DNA of 64,000 nucleotides from Neophaeotheca triangularis (taxonomy: Eukaryota). The stretch covers positions 62,001 through 126,000 of the forward strand of contig BAAIJX010000028.1 in assembly GCA_054600435.1 (NCBI GenBank), read 5' to 3'. Shown here piece by piece: positions 10,755 to 26,707 of the stretch (positions within the stretch are counted from its first letter, which is position 1; the number at the start of each line of letters is the position of its first letter). The notes beneath the pieces are model-generated. The model made no database searches and was not told the origin of the DNA. It saw only the letters and a program-made list of their open reading frames with translations. The position numbers and the translations under genes were made by a program.

Positions 10755-13700
10755 ATGGCGACCCCTCAAGATGCACGCGCTGCCCGTCTGTCCAAGCTGC
10801 TTCATAGCTACACCCAAGGCAGCAGAGCTGCAAAGAGTGCCGCTGATGGCAAACTACTGCTCGAAGCAATCGCCGCTCAACAGGACTCTGTGGGGTGCGT
10901 CGAACGCCTTGTCGCAAGCAAAAATGCACATGCAGCCCTGCAACTGGCCCTTCGGTTTGATTTGACGCCCACGTTCTTCAACAGCACTTTCAAAGACTTC
11001 ATCACTGTTCTCAGAGATCCAGCCGTCAGACAGGCTTGCGGAGGCCATTTGTGCAAGCAGTTGTTGACAGTCACTTTGAACCCACCCACTCTGTGGACTG
11101 CTCTCTCGGCCGCACATGACAGCAGACAGCTTACGGTAGAGGGTGAAATCTGCTTCGCATGGTTGTTGTTTGAGCTCATCACCTGGACCGACCACCCACC
11201 GATTATTGCCGACGAACTCGCCCAGGATATCACGAAACGGAAAAGTTTCCTGGCCGCCGAAGATCACGAACTACGTACTCTGTAAGATTCACGGACACTG
11301 TGGTATCGCCCGCGACAGGATAAGCTAACACACTATTCCAGGGGCTATCGAATCGAGAACGTACTACAAACAAAAGAGACTGGAGCTAGACAAGATGCGT
11401 ATGCTCCTGGGGGACGGCACGATAACGATCACTCGGACTTTCGCAAGATCGCCTTCTTCCCTACCAACGATGAGCTACTCAGCAAGCAAATGCCGTTCTA
11501 CCTCCCAGCAAACGCCATCAAGCAGAAGTCGTTCTCAGAGAGACCAGGTTCTCACTTGGAGAATCAATTCCGATTACTCCGTGAAGACTTTCTTGCAGAG
11601 CTCCGTGACGACATCAAGGCAAGCACTGGGGGAGACAAACGACATCGCCACCCACGTACTGTGCTGCAGGGGTTGGCCCTGGCGGGTATGTACTGCGGGG
11701 ATAGAAAGTTCAAGACTCCTTTCGCATTGACGCTGTCAGTTCAGCGTGGCCTAGAAGAGCTCACCAAACGAGACGAGAGTCAGCGCAAAGCTTTCGTGAA
11801 GAACAACCCAAAGTACCTGAAGCATCAATCATTTGGCTGCGTCCTCGATCGCCAACAAATCGTTACCTTTGCCACGCTCATCCGCGCCGAGGACAAGCTC
11901 CTCGAAGAGGTTCCGCTCGTCACTCTTCGGGTTCCAGACCGGAAGTCCCTAGAGAACCTGCTATTGACCCTCAAAACCTCGGAAACGGCGAAATTCGTCC
12001 TTGTTGACACTCCAGTCTTTGCTTACGAACCCGTCCTTCGGTGCTTGCAGTCGACAGTCGAATTGCCACTATCGCAGGAGCTCTTTGCCGTGAGTGCCGA
12101 AGAGATTGAGGCAAGCGTACGCGAGTCCAAGGTCTCACCTCTTGATCTACTTGACGATATCAAAATGGGCGCAAGCGGAGATCTGCAAAAAGCCCTTTCG
12201 CTGCCCAAATCCGTCACCTTGGACAATTCTCAGCTGGAATCTCTCATGGCCGGGTTGTATCAGTCCGTGAGCCTGATTCAAGGGCCACCTGGGTGTGGCA
12301 AGTCTTTCATCGGCTCCTTAATGACAAAGGCGTTGATCGAGAACACTTCGGAAAAGATACTCGTGCTTTGCTACACCAACCACGCCTTGGATCAATTCCT
12401 GTAAGACCTGTTAGACACTGGCATCTCGCCCGATGACATAGTCCGCTTGGGAGCTAAATCTACACCTCGGACAGAGTCGCTTCAGCTGTTTAAGCCGTCT
12501 TTCAAAGGCCAGCGTCCTTGGAACGTAATCAATGCCAAGAAAGATGAGGCGGACGAGCACGAGAGCAAGTTGAGAGGCTTGCTGTCGGCGCTGAAGAGCT
12601 TCAAGGTCAGCGATCAGAGCCTTATGGAATATCTGGAGTTTGAAGAGGACGACTCGGATTTCTACAAAGCCTTCCAGCTCCCCGAGCACGACGCAGAAGA
12701 GCAAATCATCGGCGAAGGTGGAAAGAAGGTCACCAAGTTCTACCTTCTTCAACGATGGGCTCGCGGTCAAGATGCAGGCATATTCTCGGCAATCATCTCG
12801 GATGACTTTTTGCACATCTGGACCATGGGTAGAGACAGCAGAGCCAAGAAGCTTGATTCGTGGAGAGAGCAGCTCGTGAAAGAGAGCATCGGTGGAATCG
12901 GAAGCATCGTCGATGCGTACAACAAGAGCGAGCACATTATACGCGAGGCCTTTGACCAAAAGAACGCCGAGATCATCCAAACAAAACGAATCATTGCTTG
13001 TACAACTACCGCGGCGGCCAAATACACCAAGCAGCTGCGCAGTGCCTCGCCTGGTATCGTTGTCGTTGAAGAAGCCGGAGAGATTTTGGAAAGCCACATT
13101 CTCACTGCGCTTACACCTGAGACCAAGCAGCTCATACTCATTGGCGATCACCAACAGCTTCGTCCGAAGATAAACAACTACGCGCTGACCGTGGAGAATC
13201 ATAGTGGCTACGATTTGAACCGTTCCATGTTTGAGCGTCTCATCCTCGGCGGGTTTCCTCACACCACACTGCTACAACAGCACCGGATGTGCCCAGAGAT
13301 ATCCTCTCTGGTCCGCCACCTTACGTACCCTGACCTTGAGGACGCGCCCTCTACTCGCGACCGCGACCCACTTCGAGGCTTGTCAAGCCGAGTGGTGTTC
13401 ATCGACCACCGCAATCTTGAGCTCGCGGCGTCAGCTGTAGCCGACCGCCGTGACGCCGGCTCAACAGTTTCCAAGCAGAATCAGTGGGAAGCCTCGATGA
13501 TTTTGAAGGTGGTTCGCTACATGGCCCAGCAGGGCTATGGTACTGCGAACCAAGCAGTACTCACTCCGTATCTCGGGCAGCTGAGTCTGTTACGTCAGGA
13601 ACTATCCAAGGAGCATGACCCCGTACTCAGCGATTTAGACTCTTTCGAGCTTGTGAAGGCCGGCTTGCTATCGCCTGCCAATGCTGCGCAACAGAAGCGT

Positions 13701-16700
13701 CCACTGCGCATGTCTACCATTGACAATTTCCAAGGCGAGGAGAGTGATATCGTCATCGTCAGCCTGACGCGCAGCAACGACCATGGTGACATTGGTTTCA
13801 TGGCATCCCCGGAACGACTCAACGTACTTTTATCCCGAGCCCGTGAATGCTTGGTCCTGATAGGCAATTTCGACACCTTTCTTGCAAGTCGCAAGGGCGA
13901 AGCAGTCTGGAAGCCCTTTCTGAAGATGCTCGCCGATCGCGATGAAATCTACCACGGCCTCCCGGCACGATGTCAAAGCCATCCTGATCGCCAAGTTGAG
14001 CTCAAGCAGCCAGAAGACTTTGTAGAGCTTTGCCCGGATGGGGGTTGCTTGGCCCCCTGTGAGGTAAAGCTCAGCTGTGGGTTACACAACTGCCCACAAA
14101 AGTGTCATTCACTGGCGGACCATTCAAAAATGCCCTGCCAAGAGCCCGAGAACGGCCAGTGTCCCAAAGGGCACAAGGTGAAATGGACGTGCTCCCAGCC
14201 GCTGGAGGTGTGTCCGAAGTGCGATGCTGAAGCCAAAGCCGAGGCCAAACGCCAAAGTCGCGACAAGCAGCTCGATCAAGCCAGACAGCAGAGACAAGCG
14301 CGCTATGCCGACCAGCTGGCAGAAATCCAAGATGAGATCGATCACGAGCGACGTATCATGCGGGAATCCCGTGAAGATCATGACAGGGAAAGCTCACTTC
14401 GCCAGAAGTGGCAAGACCTGGAGAATGCACGAAAACAACGGGCTCGGATGTCGAAAGAGAAGGAGACCAGCCCTCCACAAATCCCCGGCTCATTTCCCTT
14501 GGCTCCAGCTGACCAGGACATCAACCGACCCGACTCACCTTCACGGAGCAGTCAGACGGGCGATCCTCAAGATGCTAGCAACGCCACTACTGTTTCGGCA
14601 GCGCGTGGTGACTGGGAGGCACAAAAGACACTGTTTGGCGCAGACAACAAACACCTTGATGAACTGATGGATATGATTGGGCTGGAAAACGTCAAGGAAG
14701 ACTTCCTCGACCTCAAAGCCAAAGTCGATCTCACAGTGCGCCAAGGGGTCGATCTATCCAAGGAGCGGTTTGGCGTCTCGCTGCTAGGCAACCCGGGAGT
14801 CGGCAAGACGACTGTGGCACGTTTGTACGGCAAGTTCCTTGCATCTGTAGGCGCACTACCAGGAGACGAGTTTTGCGAAACGACAGGGGCCAAGCTGGCG
14901 AACCAAGGTATCGGAGGCTGCGAAAAGATTCTAGACGGGATCAAGAGCAACGGAGGCGGCACGCTATTCATTGATGAGGCGTACCAGCTCACTTCAGGAG
15001 CCAACAGTGGTGGCGCTGCCGTCCTGGACTTTCTCCTCGCCGAGGTCGAGAACCTGACAGGCAAAGTCGTCTTCATCCTCGCCGGATACAACAAAAACAT
15101 GGAGTCCTTTTTTGCCCATAATCCCGGGTTGCCTAGCCGCTTCCCTCGACGAATCCAGTTCGCTGACTACGAGGATAAAGAGTTGCTTGATATCTTCAAT
15201 TACCGACTCGCACGAAAATATGGAAAGCGAATGCAGGTCGAAGGCGGCAGCAAGGGGCTCTATGCTCGCATCGTAGTGCGACGGCTTGGTCGCGGCCGTG
15301 GGAAGGTAGGCTTTGGCAACGCTCGCGCAGTGGAGAATGCTCTCCAGAAGATCGCATCACGTCAAGCCAGGAGAGTTGGGCGAGAGCGCAGCAAGCGCAA
15401 AAACCCCAGTGACTTTCTGCTCACGATGGAAGATCTGATCGGTCCCGAACCTGAGAAGGTGCTAAAGAACAACAAGGCGTGGGAGAAGATGCAGAGTATG
15501 GTCGGTCTGTCGTCGGTCAAGGATTCAGTGCATGCCCTGTTTGAGAGTATCAAATACAACTACCAGCGAGAACTCGAGGAGAAAGCTATCATGGACTTTT
15601 CTCTCAACAAAGTCTTTCTCGGCTCGCCTGGAACTGGTAAAACTACCATCGCCAAGCTCTATGGACAGGTACTGGCCGACCTCGGGTTGCTTTCGACCAA
15701 CGAAGGTGAGTTGTTCCCATTTTCGAATACCGCCAAATACTGACAGTTTTACAGTCATCATCAAGACCCCGGCCGACTTGGTCGGAAGCGTCATCGGCGC
15801 CTCGGAAGCCAACACCAAAGCCTGTCTCGATGCCGCCATGGGCAAAGTTCTGGTCATTGACGAAGCGTATGGGCTGCACAGTGGGACGAACCCGAAAGAT
15901 CCGTACAGGATTGCCATCATCGACACAATAGTCTCCGAGGTGCAGAATGTTCCAGGCGACGATCGTTGCGTGTTGCTACTTGGTTACAAGGAACAGATGG
16001 AAAACATGATGCAGACCGCCAACCCGGGACTCGCCAGGCGTTTCCCAATCGCCTCCGGGTTCTTGTTTGAAGACTTTACCGACGGCGAACTGGCCATCAT
16101 CTTCGACTCGAAACTCAATTCTCAAGCTTTCACCGTAACGGAAAAGGCCCGGGAAGTTGCGTTTGAGTGCCTGGGTCGTATGCGCAATCGCCCAAACTTT
16201 GGCAACGCTGGTGAAATCGACATCTTGCTCAACGATGCAAAGGTTCGACAGCAGAAGCGTTTTGCTCGTGATCGCCTGCCACCGACAGCTGAGTTTGAGG
16301 CAGAAGATTTCGACCCCGACTATACTCGAGCAGATAACGCGGGCACCAATTTGCATACGCTATTCGAAGGCGTCATTGGTTGCGAGGCCATTGTCTCTCA
16401 AGTTCAGGACTATCAGAATATCGTTGCCAACATGAGGTCCATCGGCATGGACCCGAGACCGGAGCTTCCCTTTACCTTCCTCTTCCGAGGACCGCCAGGT
16501 AAGTTACGCTTCGCAACCTCGTAGAATCATACTAGGGCTAACTGTAAATAGGCACAGGCAAGACTACCACCGCTAGAAAAATGGGCCAGGTCTACTACGA
16601 TATGGGCTTCCTAGCTACCCCCGAGGTGATTGAGTGCTCTGCTAAAGATCTTATCGGCGAGTATGTCGGCCACACCGGACCAAAGGCTCAGAAGCTCATC

Positions 16701-17825
16701 GAGAGCGCACTGGGCAGAGTGCTCTTCGTGGACGAGGCTTACAGACTCGGTGATGGACAATTTGCCAAGGAAGCCGTCGATGAGCTTGTGGACTGCATCA
16801 CAAAAACGAAATTCCTCAACAAAGTCGTCATCATCCTTGCCGGCTATGTCCATGAACTCAACCGCCTGATGGACGTCAACCCAGGCCTGTCTTCGAGATT
16901 CTCTGAATCGATCGACTTCCAGCCTCTCAAGCCCAGAGACTGCCTCAAGCTCTTGCAGTCTTCGCTCGATAAGAGGAAACAAATCGACACTTCAGTCCTG
17001 TCCCCTCCAGCCGCCGACTTTGAACAACAGGCCTTGGAAAGGTTCCAGGAGCTATCTTCACTCGCCAACTTCGCCAACGGCCGGGACGTGCTGACGATTG
17101 CCAAAGCCATCACAGCCCGCATCATGAAAGGTAAAATGCCGACAAGAACCTCCCTAGCCGTGTCCAAAGGCCTCGTCATCGACGAAATCAACGTCCTGAT
17201 CTCAGAACGCAAAGCAAGAACCCACTCCGCATCTTCCCTCGCGCCGCCTATTTTGGACAGCCGCCCCCTGCCAACTCGGGCACCGACCAAGGAGCCTTCG
17301 TCCACGCCCCAGGCGACCAGCGGTGCCCCAGCCCAAGCCACCGACCCGGACACAGGCGTGCTACCGGACGAGGACCCTTCTCCAGCATCCTCCGACGACG
17401 ACGAAGGCCCGGAAGACGGCTCTCGGCCGTCACGAACCGCCAAAAGGGACGCTGGCGTCAGCGACGAAACCTGGGAGCAACTCCAAAAAGACACGTTGCT
17501 AGCAGAAGAGAAGGGGCGCGAGGGAGAAAACCTCGCGCAAGCCGAGGAAGAGCTGCGGCGGTTTTTGAAAGCGAGCGGGGACGCAAAGGAGAAGCGAGAG
17601 AGCGAGGAGGCGGAGAGGAAGAAGCGGGAGTTGGAAGATATTGAGCGGAAGAGACGGGAGGTGGAGGAGCAGCTGAGGCAGGAGGCCGAGGCGAAGGAGA
17701 AGCTGAAGCGGATGGGGAGGTGTCCTGTGGGGTATGAGTGGATCAGGCAGAGTGGTGGGTATCGTTGTGCTGGAGGGTCGCATTGGGTGTCGGACGGGCA
17801 GATGGTGAAGATGATGGGTGGTTGA
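10755..17825 (+). pseudogene. ZNFX1-like SF1 helicase + Cys/His zinc fingers + three CbbX/SpoVK-type AAA+ domains (~2300 codons; introns 11282-11341, 15706-15754, 16499-16551); interrupted by in-frame TAA at 12402-12404
   Basis: ZNFX1-type motifs PGGRHDNDHSDFRKI and QFRLLREDF. Helicase motifs QGPPGCGKS, CYTNHALDQFL, EEAGE, IGDHQQLRP, TIDNFQGEE and RLNVLLSRAR. Three Walker A motifs (GNPGVGKT, GSPGTGKT, GPPGTGKT), each with a Walker B of form hh(I/V)DEAY. Reading continues in frame through HALDQFL*DLLDTGI. Confidence 0.85.
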
Positions 17826-18180
17826 GTTTTCGAAAGCTTGTTCTTCCATGCCTGGCTGGGGGAAGGGGGAAGTTCCCTTGAGAGGGCTGGATCAGGTAGC
17901 CTTTCGATCAAGTTGATTATTACAACGGTTTCCGTAGCTTTGCGCTATTCTAGTCTCTTATCTCGGACTTCATACTCTAGCCCATTGCCCGGTTCTCATG
18001 ACGCGATAGGACTCTTTTTATCACCAAGTCGTTGACCCCGACAGAGTCCAGACACGCAAGGCTTGCCAGAAGATCTATTCGGTTATTTGGAGTCGGATAT
18101 CCTACGCCCGTACCTCGAGAAGTACTGCGAAAAGTCACCCTTTGCAAATCCTCCGTTTGCCAGTCCTCCATCTGGGTTGC

Positions 18181-21127: not shown

Positions 21128-24100
21128 CTACCAGCGCCTCCCATAAACCGCATGCTCAGCCCTCTGCCCACTGCCCCTATCCCTCTGCGCCTTCCTATCA
21201 TCAACAGTCCCACCAACTGGTCTTGCACTCTGCTGCACAGCAGCAACCGGCTTCCTTGCCATCCCCCCACCATCCTTCTCCAACAGCCCAACCTCCTTGC
21301 CCCCAGCCAAACCACTATACTTGACGTCATCCTCATGACCCGCGCCGTCTTCGGCATCCCGTCTGAACAAGCCAAGGATGTCCTTCATACTCAGCTTGCC
21401 CATCTCCTTGCCGCCTTCGATGGCCGCTTTGGCTAATTCGCGCTTCTTCTCCTGCAGTGCTAGGATCTTCTCTTCCACGCTGTCCTTGACTGTCAAGCGG
21501 AAGACTTTGACGTCGACGGTCTGGTTGAGACGGTGGACGCGATCGATAGCTTGCTCTTCGACAAAGGGGTTCCAGAAGGGTTCGAGGATGACGACGCGCG
21601 AGGCGGCTGTCAAGTTTAGCCCTAGCGACCCGCACTTGAGCGAGCACAGCAGGATGCGGGTTTTGGCATCGTTGCGCAGGGCGTTGAGGGAGGCTTCGCG
21701 CGCGTCGTTGCGCATGCTGCCGTCGTAGCGGGCGAAGCGAATGGCCGAGTGGTGGAGGTGGGGTTCGATTAGGTCGAGCATTGAGGTGAATTGGGAGAAG
21801 ACAATGGTTTTGTGTTGAGGCGTTTCAGTGTGGAGGATGCGTAGGAGGTGGCGGATTTTGGTTGATGGTTCGATGTTTAGATGGGCGGAGGGGCGCATGC
21901 CTGCGAGGACAGGGGGTGGAGAGACGGAGTCGGAGTCTGATGCGCTGTCCACGTCGCGATCGTCATCTTCGTGCTCGGCCGTGGACTTGTTGTGACCGGC
22001 TTGGTGAGAAATTTCGCTGTCGTCCTCGTCGCGTTCAGTGTCGATGGAGTCCAGAGTCTCTCCGCCACCCTCAGCGTCTTCGTCATCGGTGCCTCCAGCT
22101 TTACCCAAACTGATGTGCCTCTCCGGTCCCTCGCCAATCCACTCTCCCTCGTCATCCTCATCATCGCTATCCTGCAGAATCTTGCGATTGCGCATTCTTG
22201 GCTTCGGAGCCTCTTCCTGCTTCACCGCCTTTGTCTCCCTTTTGACTTTCTTACTCTTCTTCTGGCCTTTCTTACTCTTCAGCGCAGCAAGGTCAGCCTC
22301 ACAATCACCACACCTCGTGCCTCCCTCGCTCGCCTCATCAGCTGAAAGCTTAATCTGGCAGACATCGCAGTTTTTTGCCGCGACACTGACACCACCCATC
22401 ATGGCGGCCAGATCATCCATCTCGTCGTCTGCAGATCCTTGCTTCTTCGTGGGGCTTTGGATCCCAGTCGACAGCGCATCCTTGTCCTTGTTGAGGGCCT
22501 TCTCAATCAAATGAGGATGGTCGCAAACTTGTCGCAACCGCAGCAACATCACGAGCGCTCCCATGTATGCGTTATGACCCTTCTTGACCATGTCGTCAAG
22601 GCGGTCGTTTGCACGCTCCTGCAAACGCGTGTAGAATTCCTGCTCTTCTTCATTGAATTCGCATTCCATGTGTACAATCTCGCGCTTGACGATCTGCATG
22701 CCGCCGCTCTTCTCCTCGCCCTCCTTTGGTTTGCCACCGAAATTCAACGCGCCTTCCTTTTTCAAAATGTCCTTTGTTCGGCGCTTCATGAAAGCTCGCA
22801 GGAAGAGCTGAAGTCGTCTCATCGCCAGACCGCCTCGGCCGTTCTTCATGGGAGTCATGATGCTGTCCTTCCAAGCGCCAACCTCGCAGTAAGGCTTGAT
22901 CCGCAAGAACTTGATCAGCGACTGCAGCTCATCGAGGTTGTTCTGCATTGGCGTGCCGGTCAAACACCATCTGTACCAGCTGTTCAGCGCGCAGCATGCT
23001 TGGGTAGACTTTGCGCTCTTGTTTTTGATGCTGTGGGCTTCGTCCAGAATCACCCGGTACCAGTGCACGCCGAAACAGCCGACACGAGAGCCACCTTCGA
23101 CTGTCATGTTTGAGCCGGCATGTTCAGAGGCTAGAATTTGATAGGTGGTGATGACGACGTCGTATTTCTTGAGCTCGTAGGAAGATTTGGTGCGGCTTGG
23201 ACCGTGGTGGACGAGGACTTTCATGGCGTGGGATTTGCTGACTTTGTCTTTGATCTCGGCCTCCCATTGCTTGATGAGAGCGAGCGGGGCGACGACGAGC
23301 GTGCCTTTGCCCACTTCCTTGCTGGGTAGCTTTTGTTTGGGATGTTCTGGCTTCGCGTCTGGGCCTGGTCGTGGGTTCGTGAGAAGGAGTGAGACACTCT
23401 GAATCGTCTTGCCGAGACCCATGTCATCGGCGAGAATGCCACCCTTTGGAAGGACGCCACGGTTGTTCTTCCTGATTCCATTCTCTTTGTCGATCATCCA
23501 GGCCACACCTTCAACCTGATGTGGCAGCAGTTTGCACTTCAGACCCTCGACTGTACCATCTTCCTCATCCTCGTCTTCCTCAGGCTTAGGTCCCTCTTGC
23601 CTCTTATCCTCCACATCAAGCGTAGCGAGCCGGTCAGCAAGACTCCTAGTCTCCTTATCCTCCTCCTTTGCCTTTTTCGCGCGCTTCCTAAGACGCGTTT
23701 TCGGCTTATCCTCGTCGTCGAAAGCGCCTTCCAACAGTGCCTTTATATTCTCGTTGGCTTGGCTCGAGTCCACGTACATGTAAGGATCAGGCGCGCCGAA
23801 ACCGCCCCTCTCAGCAGCAATCTCTGCGTCAGGGTTGAATCCTTCATCGTCGTCTTGCGTGAGGTCGACAGTCTGCTTTGGCTTGGGAGGTGGTTGAGTG
23901 TAGGCTTGGTAGAGGTTGTTCGGAGCAAGGGACGAGAAGCCCGGTCTTGACGGTGGTTGGATGGTGGTCGGTGCGGTGTTGTGAGGGCGGGGGATAGGGA
24001 CAGGAGGTTGGAATGAACGTTGGTAGGGTTGAGCCATGGCGGTTCGGGCAGCTCCGACTGAGTTGGGCTGCTGCTGTGTTGGTGCTCTTGGAGCTTGGCC

Positions 24101-24814
24101 GGGCAGATAGAACGACCTTGGCTCTTGTGGCGCGAACGGATCAAAAGTGCGATTCTGGTATTGCGGCACAGCTGCAGGGTATGGTTTGTACTGCTCCACC
24201 TTCTTCTCTGCCGGCTTCTGCCAGTTGCTCTCCTGAGGTCCATTCTTCAGCGGGTTACGCAAGGGACTTGCCGTGCCAAACTCTGCTTGCTGAGGCGCCT
24301 TGAAGGTTTCCGGTGCATCTTTTGACGCTCCCTGCTTTGACGAAGGCGACTGCATCTTTGCGCTGATGTTGGCTAGTGGCTGCCTTTCGCCCTTGTGCGG
24401 GGAGAAGTGTTGACCTGAAGATGCTCGACTAGGACTTCTCTCCTTCACCATCTCGCTCGATTGTTCTTCGAGTTTCGCAGCTTGTCTTCCCTTCCTGCCA
24501 GGCGATAGACTGAATCTCAAGCCCTTGGAAGGATCCCAGACGGACGACCTGCGGGATGTGTCTTTTTCACCACTATCAAAGAGTGACGTGCTGTTCCCAA
24601 GACTGCCAGCGCTTTCTCGTTTCCGCTCAGCAGCGACTGTTGGGCTCAGCGCGTTTAGTTGTTCTTGCAGCTTGCTGATATCGAAAGAGTTGGGCGTATT
24701 CAGGTGTGCATCTTCTGTACTGGCGGTTCGAGAGAAGGTGGGCGTTTCGTTCGAGGAGAGGGTGTTGGTGGCGCGGAAGTTGCCAGTCGGCTTTGAGCGT
24801 GACCTGGATTCCAT
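21128..24814 (-). CDS. SNF2-family helicase/ATPase (Ris1/Uls1-Rad5/16-like group)
   Basis: Motifs GGILADDMGLGKT, RVILDEAH, CLTGTPMQN, LLRLRQ, FSQFTSML and SLKCGSLGLNLTAAS...QAIDRVHR. Long disordered N-terminus. Confidence 0.92.
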   Translation of the reverse strand: MESRSRSKPTGNFRATNTLSSNETPTFSRTASTEDAHLNTPNSFDISKLQEQLNALSPTVAAERKRESAGSLGNSTSLFDSGEKDTSRRSSVWDPSKGLRFSLSPGRKGRQAAKLEEQSSEMVKERSPSRASSGQHFSPHKGERQPLANISAKMQSPSSKQGASKDAPETFKAPQQAEFGTASPLRNPLKNGPQESNWQKPAEKKVEQYKPYPAAVPQYQNRTFDPFAPQEPRSFYLPGQAPRAPTQQQPNSVGAARTAMAQPYQRSFQPPVPIPRPHNTAPTTIQPPSRPGFSSLAPNNLYQAYTQPPPKPKQTVDLTQDDDEGFNPDAEIAAERGGFGAPDPYMYVDSSQANENIKALLEGAFDDEDKPKTRLRKRAKKAKEEDKETRSLADRLATLDVEDKRQEGPKPEEDEDEEDGTVEGLKCKLLPHQVEGVAWMIDKENGIRKNNRGVLPKGGILADDMGLGKTIQSVSLLLTNPRPGPDAKPEHPKQKLPSKEVGKGTLVVAPLALIKQWEAEIKDKVSKSHAMKVLVHHGPSRTKSSYELKKYDVVITTYQILASEHAGSNMTVEGGSRVGCFGVHWYRVILDEAHSIKNKSAKSTQACCALNSWYRWCLTGTPMQNNLDELQSLIKFLRIKPYCEVGAWKDSIMTPMKNGRGGLAMRRLQLFLRAFMKRRTKDILKKEGALNFGGKPKEGEEKSGGMQIVKREIVHMECEFNEEEQEFYTRLQERANDRLDDMVKKGHNAYMGALVMLLRLRQVCDHPHLIEKALNKDKDALSTGIQSPTKKQGSADDEMDDLAAMMGGVSVAAKNCDVCQIKLSADEASEGGTRCGDCEADLAALKSKKGQKKSKKVKRETKAVKQEEAPKPRMRNRKILQDSDDEDDEGEWIGEGPERHISLGKAGGTDDEDAEGGGETLDSIDTERDEDDSEISHQAGHNKSTAEHEDDDRDVDSASDSDSVSPPPVLAGMRPSAHLNIEPSTKIRHLLRILHTETPQHKTIVFSQFTSMLDLIEPHLHHSAIRFARYDGSMRNDAREASLNALRNDAKTRILLCSLKCGSLGLNLTAASRVVILEPFWNPFVEEQAIDRVHRLNQTVDVKVFRLTVKDSVEEKILALQEKKRELAKAAIEGGKEMGKLSMKDILGLFRRDAEDGAGHEDDVKYSGLAGGKEVGLLEKDGGGMARKPVAAVQQSARPVGGTVDDRKAQRDRGSGQRAEHAVYGRRW

Positions 24815-25145
24815 GTTAAGACTATATCAAAGAAGCAGAGCACGAAAGAGAAGATCACTTACGAGTTTGACCGATATTGGCGATTTTAGTGTGGTCAGAG
24901 TTCCTACTCCACCAGGGATGTCGTCGCGAAAGACGCTGACTCGAGGTGGAGGAAAACAAATAATAGTGTAGCTGCCTAGCAACGCGATAAGAGCAGTCTT
25001 GGCGTCCAGCTGCCTGAGGATTCACACTTATCGCTCGGTTGAAAGATATCTATGTTCAGTAAGAGAAACAATGCTACTACACAAGACCCAGCGAATGGTC
25101 TCTTCTCTTCTCATCTCCTCTCTCCTCTCTCCCCCTTCTGCAGTC

Positions 25146-26707
25146 TCACCGAGAAAACAACATCAACCCATCCCCACCCTCAGCCTCCTCACCATCAACC
25201 TCCCCATCCCCAGTCTCCTCTGCGAGCCCCAATCTCTGCCCAAACAACCCTGCAAAAAGCTCATCCGCCTGCCTATCACCCCACTGCCTCCTGTCCTCGG
25301 GCGCCATAAAGTTCTGCAATTTCTCATGAACATTATACCTCAACTTTCGACCCTTGCTAGCCTTGGTATCAACTTGGCGTTTCGTTTTCGCATCCCGTCG
25401 CATTTGCATGCTTAGGTCTAGACTGTTGGAGTATGAAGCTGAGGCGACGGAATCGGCGGATTTTTGCTCGAGAAGTTCTTTCAATAGCAAGCCGTAGAAG
25501 TCTGCGTCGTCGTAGATGCGGGCGTCGTGGGGGGTTTTGGCGGCGAGTTGGACGGGAGCGCAGGAACGGGGGGTTTGCGCGCGGGTTAACAGGCGGGAGG
25601 TGTCGGAGAGATGTTCGTTGAGGACGTCGACGATGCTCGCTTGGGCGGTCGTGTTGTTTAATTTGCTTCGCTGGGCAAGAGCGGTTTGTGGGCGGGCCTT
25701 CTCCGACCATTTACGGAGGGTTGCGTTACGATGGGGAAGGGATGCTTCTTCTTGAGATTGTTGGTGGGTAAGGAGGTCGGCAATGGGGGTGTCTGCGGTG
25801 AATTGAGAATGCTTGCGTTTTGATCCTGTGCGGGCTGCGCTGAGTTCTTCCCGGAAGTCCGTCAGGGTTGACCATAGGTTGAAGGCGGCGGTCTCGGCGG
25901 CTGAGGCCGCTGTCGAGGTTTCTTTGCTCAGTGTATTGGCCGGCATGTCGACCATAGTATTGGTAGCAATCAAGCTCTTCTGAAGCTTAATTCGCATGTT
26001 CAGTAGAGAGTCGAAAGCCGTTCTTTGTCGCTTGACAGCCCTTCCCTTCTCTGCATCCGCCTTGGCCGCCTGCATAATCGAGGCTGTCCCAGTCTTCTGC
26101 TCCTCAGCCATTGTTCTGCGAAGCTCCTCCCTACTATCGCCATCGACCACAGGCTTGACTTCCGGCGCTTCCGCGTGATCATCCTCCTCAATATCTTCCT
26201 CATCCCCACCTCCCTCAGCCATGATCCTTCTCAACTCCGCCCTCCTACCACCTTCCTCCTCCTCCTCCTCCTCCTCCTCCTCATCCCCACTTTCACTCTC
26301 ACTCCCCTCACCCATTTCCTCATCTTCCTCACTACTCTCTTCTCTCCCGTCCTCAAACCCAAAAGGCCCATCCTCATCCTCCTCTTCCTCAGCCTGCCCC
26401 CTACTAACCTTGGAACCCCGATACTGCGGTCCCAAAGCCGTCTCGCCCTTTCCCCTCAATTTAGCCTTCCCAACATCCACATAATGGTCGCGTCCCGCCG
26501 AATCATCGATCTCGCTCGCGGCATCGCTGTCGTCGTCGGAGTTTGTGGGGCCTTGATCAGAATCATCTGGGTTGAAGTCTGTACGGAAAGTGTCAGTAGG
26601 GGTTTTGGGTGGAGTGGTGGGTAAAGAGTGGAGATACCCTTTGCAGGAGCCGAAGAAACAAGGTCGTTGAATTCATCAACGCGAGTACGCTTTTTGTTAG
26701 GTGCCAT
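25146..26707 (-). CDS. BFR2: Bfr2/AATF ribosome biogenesis protein; intron 26579-26637
   Basis: Motifs YRGSKVSR, IYDDADFY and VDTKASKGRKLRYNVHEKLQNFMAP. Acidic N-terminal tract. The intron joins APAK to DFNPD. Confidence 0.93.
26253..26283. repeat. (TCC)n trinucleotide run encoding poly-Glu in Bfr2
   Basis: About 9-10 TCC units are directly visible. Confidence 0.8.

Follow-up and report, generated by a model that had tools for sequence, protein, structure and literature searches.

In a 64,000-nucleotide stretch of the Neophaeotheca triangularis genome (contig BAAIJX010000028.1 of assembly GCA_054600435.1, positions 62,001 to 126,000; hereafter the window), a four-exon gene at 10755-17825 is this species' copy of a conserved family of ~2300-residue proteins found across the Dikarya. 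Its predicted product couples a ZNFX1-type helicase and NFX1-type zinc fingers to three AAA+ modules of the CbbX/EccA class and to a small Cys-Cys-His domain at the C-terminus, which does not have the residues of an RZ finger and recurs in many unrelated proteins. The copy in the window is a fresh pseudogene, i.e., a single in-frame stop codon interrupts its helicase. We regard the descriptive parts of this account (the architecture, the nonsense allele and the non-RZ tail) as highly probable to nearly certain. The best overall explanation, which adds a motor mechanism for the intact members of the family, seems to us somewhat probable.

Gene structure and domain order

Open stretches in frames 0 and 1, lying between 10689 and 17825 of the forward strand, are linked via three short introns into one real gene with exons at 10755-11281, 11342-15705, 15755-16498 and 16552-17825 (all features below are on the forward strand unless stated otherwise). 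The introns, at 11282-11341 (60 nucleotides), 15706-15754 (49 nucleotides) and 16499-16551 (53 nucleotides), all have GT..AG boundaries and a CTAAC-like branch site. The reading begins with the ATG at 10755 and closes with the stop codon at 17823-17825, giving a spliced coding sequence of 6909 nucleotides (2302 codons plus the stop). An earlier sequence-only reading of this DNA had given the same coordinates, with four exons and ~2300 codons, and these are borne out. It had also described a single open frame, which is not the case: an in-frame TAA, which that reading did not mention, lies at 12402-12404.

The order of parts in the predicted protein is a ZNFX1-type superfamily 1 (SF1) helicase, NFX1-type fingers, a charged helical segment, three CbbX/EccA-class AAA+ modules, a disordered linker, a second charged helical segment and the Cys-Cys-His tail. 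We derived domain coordinates by hand from the translations and domain matches, so they are approximate to a few codons. Ahead of the helicase, 10755-12209 encodes a helical N-terminal region and a ZNFX1-like pre-helicase region with a weak match to ZNFX1 397-613 (i-Evalue 0.0046); no Pfam family matched the product of exon 1.

The helicase core, of the Upf1-like SF1 type with two RecA-like domains and an insertion, occupies 12210-13877. Pfam assigns AAA_12 (E 5.6e-38) and, in two parts, AAA_11, and motifs I-VI are readable in the translation, with the TAA breaking the core after motif I in the window's allele. When the exon-2 product was searched against solved chains with an X at the stop codon, the closest was human ZNFX1 (9q9z_A, E 2.8e-85), aligned in four stretches that run from the pre-helicase region through the two RecA-like domains into the first NFX1-type fingers. 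Other Upf1-like helicases matched more weakly, with E 4e-29 for Upf1, 4e-24 for aquarius and ~1e-14 for Sen1. By these matches the helicase classes as ZNFX1-type, nearer to ZNFX1 than to other Upf1-like helicases.

Directly after the helicase comes the NFX1-type finger region (14001-14216), with 11 Cys and 4 His making up about three zinc sites. When this region is aligned with ZNFX1 1361-1432, Cys falls opposite Cys, and the Pfam zf-NF-X1 model reaches E 0.049 on it, below its cut-off. A ZNFX1/Upf1-type helicase followed by NFX1-like fingers, as the sequence-only reading had described, is therefore present. No exon product has a Pfam match to a Miz-like (SP-RING type) domain at E≤0.01, and the stretch that follows the fingers consists of a charged helix and a disordered linker; in ZNFX1 the Miz domain lies somewhere between the fingers and the C-terminus.

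Two regions that had been called coiled coils are better termed coiled-coil-like, having been read by eye from Glu/Lys/Arg/Gln-rich, proline-free stretches of the translation. The first, followed by a Pro/Ser-rich linker, spans 14217-14471. The second spans 17472-17699, and its last 19 residues, immediately before the tail, form a helix in an AlphaFold2 model. Between the third AAA+ module and the second helical segment, 17217-17447 encodes a Pro/Ser/Asp-rich linker that is probably disordered and is weakly conserved in the family alignment.

The triple AAA+ cassette

Each of the three AAA+ modules has a Walker A of the form G-x-P-G-x-G-K-T and a Walker B of the form h-h-D-E-A-Y (h, hydrophobic), and NPGL-x-SRF regions are also present. 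Module 1 (14637-15401) has GNPGVGKT and IDEAY and matches PF00004 (E 1.4e-15), AAA_lid_6 (E 1.7e-5) and CbbX 3syk (E 7.8e-29). Module 2 (15462-16308), which is split by intron 2, has GSPGTGKT and IDEAY and matches AAA_lid_6 (E 4e-8) and CbbX 3zuh (E 1.3e-22). In module 3 (16369-17198), intron 3 splits the Walker A itself into GPPG and TGKT; the Walker B is VDEAY, and the matches are to PF00004 (E 4.9e-10), EccA1 9lur (E 1.3e-24) and CbbX (E 2.4e-21). Pfam thus finds PF00004 three times, the second and third intron-split, and AAA_lid_6 in modules 1 and 2, with none in module 3 at E≤0.01. All three hhDEAY motifs occur in 69 of 70 full-length homologues.

The sequence-only reading had recognised three complete CbbX/SpoVK-like modules, and had suggested comparing them with both CbbX and RNF213. 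In PDB sequence searches, all three modules matched CbbX and EccA1 only and none matched RNF213, while AAA_5 gave sub-threshold matches confined to the P-loop. The modules are therefore best classed as CbbX/EccA-like and not RNF213-like. The further proposal that the gene joins the ZNFX1 and RNF213 architectures is not supported: the AAA+ modules match CbbX/EccA1 only and the tail lacks the defining RZ residues.

Spread of the family

Our family search scored 8000 candidates, of which 5261 reached E≤0.001 and 120 were listed. The listed homologues include members from the Dothideo-, Eurotio-, Leotio-, Lecanoro- and Orbiliomycetes, with 51-66% identity over ~700 helicase residues. Marasmius, a basidiomycete, has a full member with the helicase, three AAA+ modules and the tail, so the family spans the Dikarya. 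Many orthologues have been deposited, in line with the statement that the fusion is annotated in other fungi, and their names are generic: ‘AAA family ATPase’, ‘CbxX/CfqX’ or ‘NFX1-type zinc finger-containing protein 1’. That no functional study is known also agrees with our searches: in the literature searched, where most subscription journals were not covered, we found none of the fungal fusion or of its tail. Queries on ZNFX1 and mycoviruses, on fungal NOD-like receptor (NLR) domains and on Hrr1/SAD-3/ZNFX1 likewise returned nothing on the fungal fusion.

A recent nonsense mutation

The TAA at 12402-12404 is codon 530 and lies between motifs I and Ia of helicase domain 1A, where it separates the residues NHALDQFL from DLLDTGISP. 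It is the only lesion in the 2302 codons. We considered whether splicing could remove it: candidate GT..AG pairs would excise 14, 41 or 74 nucleotides, none of these keeps the frame and conserved residues would be lost, so they were rejected.

The best database match to the joined model is a deposited N. triangularis hypothetical protein of 2262 residues (P0004). The two are identical over residues 1-493 and over the last 1768, and exactly 40 codons are absent from the deposited protein. This identity means that the window is that deposited assembly or a near-identical one. The missing codons correspond to a false intron at 12295-12414 (120 nucleotides, GTGGCA..TTAG), which skips the TAA together with the Walker A GKS, thereby deleting the Walker A lysine and the conserved stretch up to motif Ia. 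Its donor, GTGGCA, is weak, and the sole purpose of the intron is to bypass the TAA. It is an example of how gene callers can mask fresh pseudogenes while removing catalytic motifs.

Two sequencing runs bear on the stop codon. Run X1 contains all sampled words of the window and is probably the source run of the assembly, while run X2, made from a different sample labelled as the same organism, contains 54% of them. A contig build from X1 gave one 20.8-kb contig at word depth 132 with 0 differences from the window, and it has T at 12402 with no alternative letter. X2 has G at 12402, making the codon GAA (Glu). Over 7201 nucleotides, 14 X2 records carry 156 substitutions (~2% divergence) and only two indels: an in-frame 12-nucleotide insertion after 14466 and a 1-nucleotide insertion after 17874, past the stop codon.

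Homologues point to the same ancestral letter. We examined 120 of them at codon 530; the pattern used to find the position matched 111 (the 9 unmatched include P0004), and 106 of these 111 have Glu there, as does human ZNFX1. From the G in X2 and the Glu in homologues and ZNFX1, it follows that the ancestral codon was GAA and that the change was G>T (GAA>TAA), and from the absence of a second lesion that the event is very young. The TAA is therefore best read as a recent, strain-specific nonsense mutation that leaves a null or truncated allele, and the gene is accordingly dispensable for growth of the isolate that carries it. Together with the intact sister isolate, this allele makes a natural knock-out pair, and its pseudogene status lowers the value of the locus itself.

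Two further observations concern variation between and within these isolates. Intron 1 differs at 5 of its 60 nucleotides, and the adjoining exons differ at ~2.4% of synonymous sites. Over the gene, X2 yields short, interrupted contigs, and at 13211-13361 two alternative 151-nucleotide contigs (depths 51 and 73) carry 4 and 3 differences; this looks like two haplotypes in that isolate.

The C-terminal tail is not an RZ finger

The protein ends in a mini-domain of ~35 residues (17700-17822) with the core C-x2-G-[YF]-x-W-[IV]-K-x3-G-[YW]-R-C-x-G-G-x-H. In alignments its key residues are Cys at 17721-17723, Trp at 17739-17741, Cys at 17766-17768 and His at 17781-17783. The terminal motif GRCPVGYEW...GGYRCAGGSH, which the sequence-only reading had picked out, is thus present, and it is strongly conserved: 68 of the 75 long homologues listed end in the complete motif. 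Eight residues (G, C, G, W, G, C, G and H) never vary among 23 family tails, and a set of 32 tails and repeats taken from other proteins has five that are invariant (C, G, C, G and H). The 21-residue spacing holds in 167 of 178 pattern instances (147 proteins). The only potential metal ligands shared by all are Cys, Cys and His (C-x14-C-x4-H).

The same reading had suggested that the tail may be a reduced RZ-like catalytic finger. As described in a preprint on ZNFX1 structure (bioRxiv 10.1101/2025.10.14.682297), the RZ domain folds as a beta-sandwich and is preceded by a short helix that binds ubiquitin; its zinc ligands are C1849, H1853, C1869 and C1872, and its catalytic pair is C1860 and H1881. 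The pattern that we derived from those residues is C-x3-H-x6-C-x8-C-x2-C-x8-H, spanning 33 residues. The tail has Tyr or Phe at the position of the first RZ His, and it has no Cys between its two invariant Cys. According to the preprint, which makes no mention of fungi, RZ dates back as far as choanoflagellates; it also describes a Miz-like E3 ubiquitin ligase domain in ZNFX1.

Database searches gave no sign of an RZ relationship. With the tail as query, Pfam at E≤10 returned no RZ match, only PirA-like and RcnB noise; an RZ model is presumably among those in the Pfam set searched. A 16-copy array of the module (see below) gave nothing RZ-like in Pfam at E≤0.001, and its weak matches to SBD_N, WWE_1, HRM and DUF5541 were set aside as summed noise, with no single stretch passing. 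Both phmmer and profile searches of the PDB with the tail gave 0 matches at E≤10, and a search of the ESM Atlas gave no usable match.

Structure prediction adds a fold. An AlphaFold2 model of the tail, built from a 32-row alignment, has a helix at residues 2-20, strands at 29-32, 35-38 and 44-46, and a second helix at 47-53, with a predicted local distance difference test (pLDDT) score of 82.7. When this 56-residue model, which is weak ground for such a search, was compared with the PDB by Foldseek, none of the 46 rows reached E≤0.001 and none was RNF213 or ZNFX1. A VIA-wide comparison of the same small model with 48,161 chains put 390 of them at Z≥2 and not one at Z≥5 (best Z 4.4), and no RNF213 or ZNFX1 chain is among the 50 rows shown. 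Folding the tail and searching with the fold, which had been proposed as a check, produced a confident model and no RNF213 or ZNFX1 row among those shown, in searches where so small a query carries little weight. With the defining RZ residues absent, the tail is, by its residues, not an RZ finger, and the suggestion of a catalytic finger finds no support in residues, Pfam or PDB.

The tail as a mobile module

A profile of the 23 family tails, searched against 1.84 billion representative proteins, matched 1348 at E≤0.001 and 540 at E≤1e-10. The highest-ranking matches comprise members of the helicase/AAA+ family, fragments consisting of their last exon, and proteins that carry the module in tandem: there are 16 copies in P0161, 8 in P0162, 7 in P0173, 4 each in P0169 and P0171, and 3 each in P0165, P0166 and P0191. 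The arrays of 16, 8, 7 and 4 copies are in proteins without a helicase or AAA domain, and no Pfam family covers the repeats. The 7-copy arrays of P0173 and P0315 have a variant module with C-x-[HC]-G at the first Cys, a possible fourth ligand that is absent from the helicase family.

Other carriers combine the module with known domains. P0313 has a NACHT-type NTPase (NPHP3_N, E 1e-21) followed by two tail modules, and P0308 has tetratricopeptide repeats (TPR_10/TPR-S) followed by four. The module also occurs with the ubiquitin-like domain ULD_2 (P0171 and P0378), with ankyrin repeats (P0374), with thioredoxin (P0360) and in many small, otherwise featureless proteins. Named carriers, all ‘hypothetical’, come from Ascomycota (Cudoniella and Polycauliona) and Basidiomycota (Pleurotus, Mycena and Piloderma). 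In most of 16 proteins inspected, the module or the last copy of the array is at the extreme C-terminus, the chain ending 8-11 residues past the His. The tail thus classes as an unannotated, mobile C-terminal mini-domain. It has no Pfam model, no solved relative and >1000 carriers. It is the most original element of the locus.

Two carriers of ~1900 residues, P0373 and P0376, have three PF00004 stretches, AAA_lid_6 and the tail, and they have no AAA_11 or AAA_12. Their N-terminal ~900 residues match no Pfam family at E≤1e-5. The gene identifier of P0373 begins with m51a1, a prefix that the Mastigamoeba balamuthi genome paper also uses. The triple-AAA and tail cassette therefore appears to be a unit in its own right, joined in fungi to a ZNFX1 helicase.

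Two smaller observations concern partial members. P0163 (1044 residues) has the N-terminal region, the start of the helicase, the fingers and two tail modules, with no AAA+ cassette and with the helicase partly missing; it may be a faulty gene model. A word-based tail search among proteins of 233-744 residues matched 37 of 38 candidates, all of which resemble last-exon fragments of the helicase/AAA+ family.

Proposed mechanism

The mechanism proposed here concerns intact orthologues, not the allele with the TAA. ZNFX1-type helicases bind and move on RNA, and the fungal helicase would, by analogy, bind RNA and translocate on it in the same way. CbbX draws the tail of a protein through the pore of its hexamer, and its EccA-type relatives are chaperone-like; the three AAA+ modules may form a CbbX-like protein-remodelling motor. 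The usual ring is six-fold and cannot be closed by the three modules of a single chain, while two chains could close it, and a six-module ring would probably be completed by pairing two chains via the flanking charged helical segments. The tail might then dock the machine to a ligand or partner shared with NACHT and TPR proteins that bear the same module, and the complete protein would act as an RNA-triggered remodeller of RNA-protein assemblies. This is our best mechanistic reading, inferred from the parts and held tentatively, as somewhat less likely than not.

As for biological role, the hint of defence, and the sole one, is that the same tail module ends fungal proteins with NACHT and TPR domains. 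A broader idea is possible and in our view rather doubtful: the ~35-residue module may be an undescribed eukaryotic domain that ties the ZNFX1-helicase/triple-AAA+ machine and fungal NLR-type proteins (with NACHT, TPR, ankyrin or ubiquitin-like contexts) to one ligand or partner, and so a new recognition or signalling module of cell-autonomous defence. The triple-AAA and tail cassette would then be an old unit, fused by fungi to a ZNFX1 helicase and by Mastigamoeba to something else.

Weighing the account and its alternatives

Several points count against our account. X1, as the probable source run, is not independent of the assembly, so it rules out an assembly slip and not a mutation in the sequenced culture. 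The intactness of the X2 gene rests on the 40 of 156 differences that were listed (they change 13 codons synonymously and 19 non-synonymously, and also affect the stop codon and 5 positions of intron 1), and there are short gaps between the X2 contigs. Over codons ~10-830 the ratio of non-synonymous to synonymous differences per site (pN/pS) is ~0.44, so constraint on the N-terminal third is moderate, not strong. The tail has three invariant potential metal ligands rather than four, making zinc binding uncertain. Ring closure by pairing and docking by the tail are drawn only from analogy with the CbbX hexamer and from the co-occurrence of domains. More generally, the function proposed for intact orthologues is a matter of inference.

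The alternative that survives best, which we still consider unlikely, is that intact orthologues are housekeeping cofactors of RNA silencing or surveillance, like Schizosaccharomyces pombe Hrr1 or Neurospora SAD-3, with no part in defence. Hrr1 and SAD-3, which are relatives of ZNFX1, act in small-RNA pathways, and conservation of the family is high (members from five ascomycete classes are 51-66% identical over 700 residues). The gene neighbourhood is ordinary too, with flanking genes for a cytidylyltransferase, a glyoxalase, a sugar transporter, an SNF2 protein and AATF. However, we know of no AAA+ cassette or tail in Hrr1 or SAD-3. A conditional or conflict-related role is instead suggested by the dispensability of the gene in the TAA-bearing isolate, by the moderate constraint on the N-terminal third and by a tail held in common with NACHT/TPR proteins, i.e., NLR-type architectures.

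The docking function that we propose for the tail has a competitor of its own, in which the tail does not bind a ligand and is instead a homotypic signalling or oligomerisation motif that pairs with the same motif on partner proteins. Being short, terminal and common to an ATPase machine and NACHT/TPR proteins, the tail can be likened to the short terminal motifs of fungal NLR pathways, and its many small, otherwise featureless carriers would suit that role. However, the predicted fold of the tail is a helix plus a three-stranded sheet (pLDDT 82.7) and not an amyloid-type motif, and no co-localised partner gene was seen in the window. We judge homotypic pairing to be improbable and retain docking to a shared ligand or partner.

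It is more improbable still that the TAA is no real loss, i.e., that it is a sequencing or culture artefact or is read through, so that the full protein is made. That it is the sole lesion in 2302 codons would fit this idea, as would the likely identity of X1 with the data behind the assembly. However, the separate X1 build has no alternative letter at word depth 132, the annotation pipeline also met the stop codon and spliced round it, and TAA is the least leaky stop codon. We therefore keep to a recent nonsense mutation.

The weakest alternative, that the tail is a reduced RZ-type catalytic finger and the protein a sensor-motor-E3 effector that ubiquitylates targets after RNA sensing, is very improbable: a truly ZNFX1-type helicase, a conserved Cys-x4-His pair, a loose shared pattern (C-P-x-G-aromatic ... 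G-G-x-H) and a position after a helix, as for RZ, are set against four zinc ligands and a catalytic C/H over 33 residues in RZ versus C, C and H over 21 in the tail, no likeness in Pfam or PDB sequence searches or in the fold-search rows shown, no Miz domain either, and tandem arrays of up to 16 copies that look like a binding repeat and not an active site.

Other features of the window

The genes flanking the helicase/AAA+ gene encode cytidylyltransferase-like and glyoxalase-fold proteins, a fragment of a sugar transporter, an SNF2 ATPase and AATF/Che1. The cytidylyltransferase-like and glyoxalase-fold genes are upstream. The SNF2-family ATPase gene is at 21128-24826 on the reverse strand (SNF2-rel_dom, E 2.6e-65), and the AATF/Che1-TRAUB gene is at 25146-26672, also on the reverse strand. 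Antisense to the last exon, 16844-17944 of the reverse strand is a stop-free stretch of 366 codons, probably a by-product of codon composition.

Comparison with known systems

RNF213 (mysterin) resembles the fungal protein by analogy only: it too is giant, with several AAA+ modules and a C-terminal Cys/His element. However, the AAA modules of RNF213 are dynein-like and number six, and its RZ is a true one, whereas the fungal protein has three modules of the CbbX class, and RNF213 appeared in none of our PDB sequence searches and in none of the fold-search rows shown. S. pombe Hrr1 and Neurospora SAD-3, which we take to belong to the same helicase clade as the fungal fusion, are much shorter proteins.

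CbbX, the red-type Rubisco activase, and EccA1 of the ESX-1 system are the only solved chains that the AAA+ modules match (E 1e-21 to 8e-29). Each of these has one module per chain and forms homohexamers, whereas the fungal chain has three in tandem, with helical flanks and a fusion to a helicase.

Animal ZNFX1 is the closest relative of solved structure for the other half of the protein, sharing the Upf1-like SF1 helicase with its motifs, the pre-helicase region and the NFX1-type fingers right after the helicase. Its fingers form a long stalk, whereas the fungal protein has about three zinc sites, and where ZNFX1 is reported to have a Miz and an RZ domain, the fungal protein has three AAA+ modules and a different mini-domain. 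The fungal protein therefore combines a ZNFX1-type helicase with an effector half of another kind. In animals, ZNFX1 has recently come to be known as a helicase and E3 ligase of innate immunity that is activated by RNA. Fungi retain its helicase and fingers and swap both E3 domains for a triple remodelling motor and another terminal module, and thereby offer a naturally occurring test of the couplings open to a ZNFX1-type sensor.

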